Assembly (NCBI RefSeq): GCF_003334255.1
Contig: NZ_QOWU01000021.1
Reading direction: 5' to 3' (one strand)
Origin: Escherichia coli
Lineage (GTDB): Bacteria > Pseudomonadota > Gammaproteobacteria > Enterobacterales > Enterobacteriaceae
DNA: 64,000 bases
In this document: positions 15,132 to 15,362 of the stretch, piece after piece
Numbering within the stretch: the stretch's first letter is position 1
How the letters are laid out: each line of letters opens with the position of its first letter
Notes under the pieces: generated by a model
The model's database searches: none
What the model saw: only the letters and a program-made list of their open reading frames with translations
Told to the model about the DNA's origin: nothing
Translations under genes and position numbers: made by a program

Positions 15132-15362
15132 ATGCATTTCGCTCAGCGAGTTCGCGCCCTGGTTGTGTTGAATGGCGTGGCGTTATTGCCTCAATTTGCC
15201 TGTAAACAGGGGCTTGCGAACGGTGAACTGGTGCGCCTGTTTGCACCGTGGAGCGGCATACCCAGACCGTTGTATGCTTTATTTGCGGGGCGAAAGGGGA
15301 TGCCTGCCATTGCGCGATATTTTATGGATGAGTTAACCACGCGGCTTGCCAACGGGGTCTGA
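15132..15362 (+). pseudogene. yqfE: LysR-family regulator C-terminal fragment (yqfE-like remnant)
   Basis: 76-aa ORF resembling only the C-terminal substrate-binding end of a LysR protein; no HTH domain present. Confidence 0.6.

Follow-up and report, generated by a model that had tools for sequence, protein, structure and literature searches.

The window analysed here is a 64,000-nucleotide (nt) stretch of the Escherichia coli chromosome (assembly GCF_003334255.1, contig NZ_QOWU01000021.1; one strand, numbered from its first letter) that carries the gene order scpA–argP–yqfE–rpiA–serA. Situated between the divergently oriented argP and rpiA is an ATG-initiated open reading frame (ORF) of 76 codons plus a stop codon, preceded by an in-frame TAA 11 codons before its ATG (Table 1). 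This ORF is yqfE (b2915), a pseudogene already annotated in E. coli K-12 MG1655, where the feature table of NC_000913.3 lists it at 3059381–3059611, between rpiA and argP. The MG1655 and window loci are 100% identical over 364 nt, and the two ORFs agree in coordinates, strand and sequence without a single difference; they are the same locus. The PGAP annotation nonetheless presents the ORF as a normal coding sequence (CDS), 'LysR substrate-binding domain-containing protein' (WP_000545308.1), as it does in most genomes. The neighbouring ArgP (IciA), encoded on the opposite strand and transcribed divergently from yqfE, is itself a member of the LysR superfamily. On the other side of rpiA, 74 nt downstream, E. 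coli OkiPb01701 carries the start of an annotated IS4-like IS421 transposase gene (L021:2163–2269), which hints that an IS has inserted between rpiA and serA in that strain.

Table 1. Features of the argP–rpiA interval, in window coordinates.
Feature	Coordinates	Strand	Basis
argP, intact LysR-family regulator, 297 aa; neighbour, not parent	14097–14990	-	Annotation
argP upstream region, common to remnant-type and cluster-bearing genomes	14991–15043	-	blastn; invariant in 15 alleles
Putative filler segment at left deletion junction, specific to K-12-type remnant	15044–15090	.	Unmatched in intact cluster
FMN-dependent NADH-azoreductase 3′ fragment (residues 182–207 of 209)	15091–15169	-	blastn and tblastn
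yqfE (b2915), chimeric pseudogene ORF	15132–15362	+	ORF list of the window; NC_000913.3 pseudogene annotation
LysR 3′ fragment: last base of codon 235, residues 236–298, stop	15170–15362	+	blastn, tblastn, Pfam
45-nt segment, yqfE codons 21–35, missing from 29.8% of E. coli genomes through a secondary in-frame deletion	15192–15236	+	Alignments
yqfE stop–rpiA spacer with TATAAT at 15378–15383; presumed rpiA promoter and 5′ UTR	15363–15417	+	Sequence
rpiA, downstream neighbour	15418–16077	+	Annotation; tblastn 100%

The LysR family has an established two-domain architecture, in which a helix-turn-helix (HTH) domain is joined to an effector-binding domain. Little of this architecture is present in yqfE. 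The Pfam model LysR_substrate (PF03466) aligns to residues 15–72 of the ORF through model positions 151–208 of 209 (i-E 7.1e-7), and it is the sole domain detected in the 76-residue product by the Pfam search, HTH_1 (PF00126) being absent. Congruent with this, the NCBIfam LysR models AaeR, PRK14997 and YafC align to the ORF by their last ~60 positions only. The effector-binding domain is thus incomplete, whereas in the intact orthologue described below it is matched from model position 2 to 208. In these respects the original prediction, which had described a LysR C-terminal effector-domain tail devoid of an N-terminal HTH and lying between argP and rpiA, was accurate. Lacking the HTH and ~70% of the effector domain, the predicted 76-residue product would be unable to act as a LysR regulator, and yqfE most likely has no function as a gene.

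The intact gene from which this tail derives was found through DNA comparison; a protein-index search for close full-length relatives returned only fragments of at most 110 residues from Escherichia and Shigella, many of them truncated. When a 601-nt query covering the locus was searched against complete E. coli genomes, a minority aligned only from position 15170 rightwards, and there carried an annotated 'LysR family transcriptional regulator'. In E. coli CFSAN061770 (L003) and E. coli GF4-3 (L004), argP on the minus strand is accompanied by a three-gene operon, also on the minus strand, and by a divergent gene for a 298-residue LysR regulator on the plus strand, the end of which lies 55 nt from rpiA in L003. 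The operon encodes a ferredoxin-reductase family protein of 441 residues (alternatively named 'ferric reductase-like transmembrane domain-containing' by PGAP), a BhsA-like DUF1471 protein of 86 residues, and an FMN-dependent NADH-azoreductase of 209 residues. This accessory cluster spans L003:2903–6193 and is also found in L004, in a third E. coli (L009), in E. whittamii (L005) and in Escherichia sp. E1V33 (L006). An intact LysR gene occupies the syntenic site in all five of these genomes, and a Pseudocitrobacter genome (L007) bears a syntenic LysR copy at 72% protein identity. None of the four cluster proteins reaches an NCBIfam equivalog cut-off; the scores of the intact LysR protein (172 bits with PRK14997, 151 with YafC and 125 with AaeR) all fall well under the curated thresholds.

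The correspondence between this regulator (WP_000568123.1) and the window ORF is exact where the two overlap. Residues 14–76 of yqfE are identical to residues 236–298 of the intact protein at 63 of 63 positions (tblastn, 15171–15359, E 4e-39), and both genes end at the same site upstream of rpiA. The two loci differ in everything else: the intact protein has HTH_1 at residues 4–63 and a complete LysR_substrate domain at 88–294, and faces a divergent operon, whereas the window retains neither residues 1–235 nor the operon. A short ORF that, searched alone against NCBIfam, yields a weak E-value of 1e-4 might be dismissed as a chance ORF of LysR-like composition. That reading can be discarded altogether, given a Pfam match (E 7e-7) that lies in register at the very end of the domain and the 63 identical residues. 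The same comparison bears on a second possibility, namely that yqfE is a decayed tandem duplicate of argP, to which its adjacency and the common family membership might point. With the parent identified, this is refuted: the parent LysR aligns with ArgP over just 36 residues, at 28% identity (E 0.003); among NCBIfam models the top scores go to PRK14997, YafC and AaeR rather than to ArgP; and it is the other LysR gene that the remnant matches at 100% identity. Proximity to argP, which had been offered as a clue to the origin of the ORF, is coincidental.

Alignment of the window with the L003 cluster resolves the interval into discrete segments. By blastn, window positions 14000–15043 correspond to L003 1842–2885, comprising argP and 53 nt of its upstream region; positions 15113–15169 correspond to L003 4598–4654 at 91% nucleotide identity over 57 nt; and positions 15170–16400 correspond to L003 6001–7231, encompassing the LysR tail, its stop codon and then rpiA. 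The middle segment is extended by tblastn, in which azoreductase residues 182–207 align to 15168–15091 on the minus strand with 81% amino acid identity (E 1.3e-10). The left edge of homology is sharply defined, stopping at 15042–15043 in L003, L005, L006, Escherichia sp. MOD1-EC7003 (L008), L009 and L010, and at 15035 in Pseudocitrobacter L007. The right junction, 15169|15170, has no microhomology. Only codons 14–76 of the ORF are LysR-derived, and the ATG together with codons 1–13 is the antisense strand of the azoreductase gene 3′ end. The expectation that the whole ORF would be a LysR tail is thus borne out for codons 14–76, with the first 13 codons contributed by a different gene. On these alignments, yqfE is a deletion chimera and not a frameshifted gene.

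The original prediction had also proposed looking, with full-length LysR proteins, for frameshifted N-terminal remnants. A tblastn search with the intact LysR protein across window positions 13000–17000, at a word size of 2 and with E-values of up to 10 admitted, found nothing significant between argP and 15170. No remnant of residues 1–235 is present there, and the gene was lost through deletion rather than through frameshift decay. The idea that a former LysR gene decayed here stands, supported by an intact syntenic parent of 298 residues; its manner, a large deletion in place of frameshift decay, differs from that envisaged.

The one segment without a match is the ~47 nt at 15044–15090. Local alignment to either strand of the L003 cluster yielded only chance matches of 9–12 nt, blastn with a word size of 9 found no source in L005–L010, and a sensitive blastn search of all E. 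coli genomes returned only the locus itself, at one place per genome. The segment may be filler DNA, or may derive from a cluster variant that has since been lost. The argP ORF could formally be extended rightwards into this segment, to 319 residues, from an in-frame ATG at 15056 (14097–15056, minus strand), upstream of the annotated start at 14990. Such an extension is unlikely to be used because it passes 15043, where homology to cluster-bearing genomes ends.

These data can be assembled into a history of the locus. The cluster, whose synteny recurs in the other Escherichia genomes and in Pseudocitrobacter, would represent the ancestral state and the remnant the derived one; a fragment consisting of a gene's exact 3′ end could not have been the precursor of that gene. 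The ancestral Escherichia arrangement would then have been argP, transcribed leftwards, followed by the leftward operon of ferredoxin/ferric-reductase-like, DUF1471 and FMN-dependent NADH-azoreductase genes, the divergent LysR gene and rpiA. In a lineage ancestral to ~95% of present E. coli, ~3.1 kb would have been removed by a non-homologous deletion, leaving behind the 47 nt of no detectable source, ~79 nt from the 3′ end of the azoreductase gene and the terminal 193 nt of the LysR gene. By chance, the junction would have placed an antisense ATG of the azoreductase gene in frame with the LysR tail, thereby creating the 76-codon ORF. The remnant DNA would now serve only as a spacer between the control regions of argP and rpiA, drifting and eroding further, with its last few bases probably overlapping the presumed rpiA promoter.

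The distribution of the two arrangements was followed in 5,426 complete E. coli genomes. A 69-nt query for the K-12-type junction (15044–15112) occurs once each in 5,177 of them (95.4%). It is missing from 249 genomes, the same number as are matched by a 3.1-kb cluster query (233 at a coverage of at least 80%), and it occurs in none of those that match. One of the 249, strain WB61, retains only the edges of the cluster; the remaining 248 keep most or part of the cluster itself, and most of these have the intact 298-residue LysR gene 55 nt upstream of rpiA, as do other Escherichia. The cluster is also kept in E. whittamii and two further Escherichia lineages. The comparison with genomes bearing an intact gene, by which the original prediction was to be judged, thus came out in its favour. 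WB61 itself carries a different, clean deletion, corresponding to L003 2948–5923, that spares LysR residues 210–298. No other of the 5,426 genomes has it, and it is independent of the K-12-type deletion. Separately, the cluster has decayed through IS1 insertions in several E. coli, the reductase gene is fragmented in L005 and L006, and in L008 the LysR gene is frameshifted and its neighbours are partly deleted. The K-12-type yqfE region also turns up on one plasmid record in the E. coli genome searches, possibly because chromosomal DNA was captured in an F-prime-like manner, or as an artefact of assembly.

Within the K-12 type, the remnant has continued to erode. The 45-nt segment at codons 21–35 is present in 3,807 of the 5,426 genomes, which puts its loss at 1,619, among the K-12-type genomes; the protein variants P0033 and P0049 reflect this in-frame deletion. 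To gauge constraint on the locus, 15 alleles picked across the identity range were aligned, and variable sites were counted one by one. Four of the 15 combine M1L with Q5*, losing the ATG and acquiring a stop at codon 5, and one further allele carries R54*, which PGAP flags as an 'internal stop'. The 53 nt of the argP upstream region are invariant (0/53), so that conservation in the yqfE–argP spacer (14991–15131) is limited to the part adjoining argP; 10 of the 88 nt at 15044–15131 are polymorphic, with one indel in addition. The head of the ORF (codons 1–13) has five nonsynonymous and no synonymous variants, including M1L and Q5*, and the LysR tail (codons 14–76) has eight nonsynonymous and 11 synonymous, including R54*. 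By comparison, the argP coding region has one nonsynonymous and 48 synonymous variants, and that of rpiA three and 18. At 8 per 142 sites, nonsynonymous variants are 40 times as dense in the tail as in argP (1 per 674; p 5e-6) and 10 times as dense as in rpiA (3 per 498; p 4e-4), and their density is not significantly lower than the variant density of the adjacent non-coding DNA (p 0.13).

One statistic appears to point the other way. The tail's ratio of 8:11 comprises fewer nonsynonymous variants than strict neutrality predicts (p 0.002), although with a small, non-random sample the test is indicative only. Among the synonymous variants, six of 11 are alleles also found in the intact genes, compared with one of the eight nonsynonymous; the remnant-private variants, seven nonsynonymous to five synonymous, are indistinguishable from neutral (p 0.19). 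Because it is mostly the synonymous and not the nonsynonymous variants that are shared with intact genes, the synonymous excess suggests that variation reached the remnant by inheritance from, or exchange with, copies that are themselves under selection, and selection on the remnant is not required. Conceivably, the deficit could instead betray a functional small protein, for instance a LysR C-terminal 'micro-protein' that perturbs the oligomerisation of LysR regulators. The ORF is open in roughly two thirds of E. coli genomes, an AGGGA motif stands ~10 nt upstream of its ATG, PGAP treats it as a CDS, and the 76-residue products of K-12 and CFT073 are identical despite ~7% divergence of the adjoining 15044–15112. 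Such a function is nevertheless very unlikely. Nearly a third of genomes have dispensed with codons 21–35, start-loss and nonsense alleles turn up even in a small sample, the head codons vary only nonsynonymously, the synonymous excess is largely explained by the alleles common to intact genes, and of the 209 LysR_substrate positions the fragment retains no more than the final 58. Moreover, yqfE is among the genes deleted from the genome-reduced strain DGF-298 (PMC10652928), and the literature search found no report of a yqfE product. Were the chimeric ORF translated and maintained where it is open, it would offer a datable birth of a new micro-protein from a deletion junction, an outcome to which we assign only a slim chance. 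The nonsense, start-loss and deletion alleles, together with the polymorphism, support instead a decaying pseudogene.

The 3′ end of the remnant calls for a separate consideration, since it abuts the presumed control region of rpiA. The TATAAT in the spacer precedes the rpiA ATG by 35 nt, which suggests that the rpiA promoter starts at the very end of the remnant. The assignment is tentative, because the TATAAT is a lone element and a consensus scan for promoters and terminators over 14950–15450 reported no sites. It is possible to imagine on this basis that the remnant DNA has been retained as cis-regulatory sequence, providing promoter upstream elements for rpiA, or serving argP or both, such that longer deletions were selected against. 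Three observations are compatible with this. The independent K-12-type and WB61-type deletions both stop before the LysR 3′ end; positions 15341–15417 are nearly invariant compared with the polymorphic 15044–15340, with only two singleton variants at 15360–15417 among the 15 alleles; and with the TATAAT where it is, a −35 element, if present, would fall across the yqfE stop codon. Against it, a ~120-nt ERIC-like insertion in L004 and L008 pushes the entire LysR tail away from an rpiA gene that is nonetheless intact; the 45-nt piece of the tail is absent from 30% of genomes; polymorphism over most of the tail matches that of neutral DNA; and the scan detected neither a promoter nor a terminator. 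Any constraint on the remnant is limited at most to its last ~20–40 nt, and retention for cis-regulation is on balance unlikely.

The ~120-nt element (L004:6205–6335 and L008 ~6917–7035, equivalent to window ~15378–15381) has entered a TATA that lies between the LysR stop codon and rpiA, directly upstream of TATAAT, and its insertion recreates the TATAAT next to rpiA. It bears what we take to be both ERIC/IRU primer motifs (ERIC1R and ERIC2).

Two other regulatory roles have a bearing on the spacer between yqfE and argP. An in-silico screen with InvenireSRNA assigned it a CsrB/C-like probability of 0.64, placing it in the top 16 of 2,902 sequences (PMC8144298); in our hands, Rfam gave no match at E up to 1 in 14900–15500. 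Control of argP by PhoB through this spacer was likewise considered and set aside, as genome-wide ChIP-seq and RNA-seq lend it no support, neither binding nor regulation by PhoB having been found at argP (PMC10294691).

Taken together, yqfE is very probably the non-functional vestige of a LysR-type regulator gene. The locus is already known, and it is an ordinary gene remnant of little significance. The literature search found no functional study of yqfE or b2915; its mentions are the deletion list and the CsrB/C-like score. What is added here are minor refinements: the parent gene and the lost cluster, the chimeric first 13 codons, the independent deletions and the frequencies of erosion. They have some value for annotation, since the normal-CDS calls made by PGAP in thousands of genomes concern a deletion chimera that takes its start codon from the antisense strand of another gene. 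Of somewhat broader interest is the accessory cluster itself, which ~95% of E. coli have lost and which is decaying independently in some of their relatives. Its regulator is uncharacterised, and the cluster could be modestly interesting for studies of redox or quinone stress.
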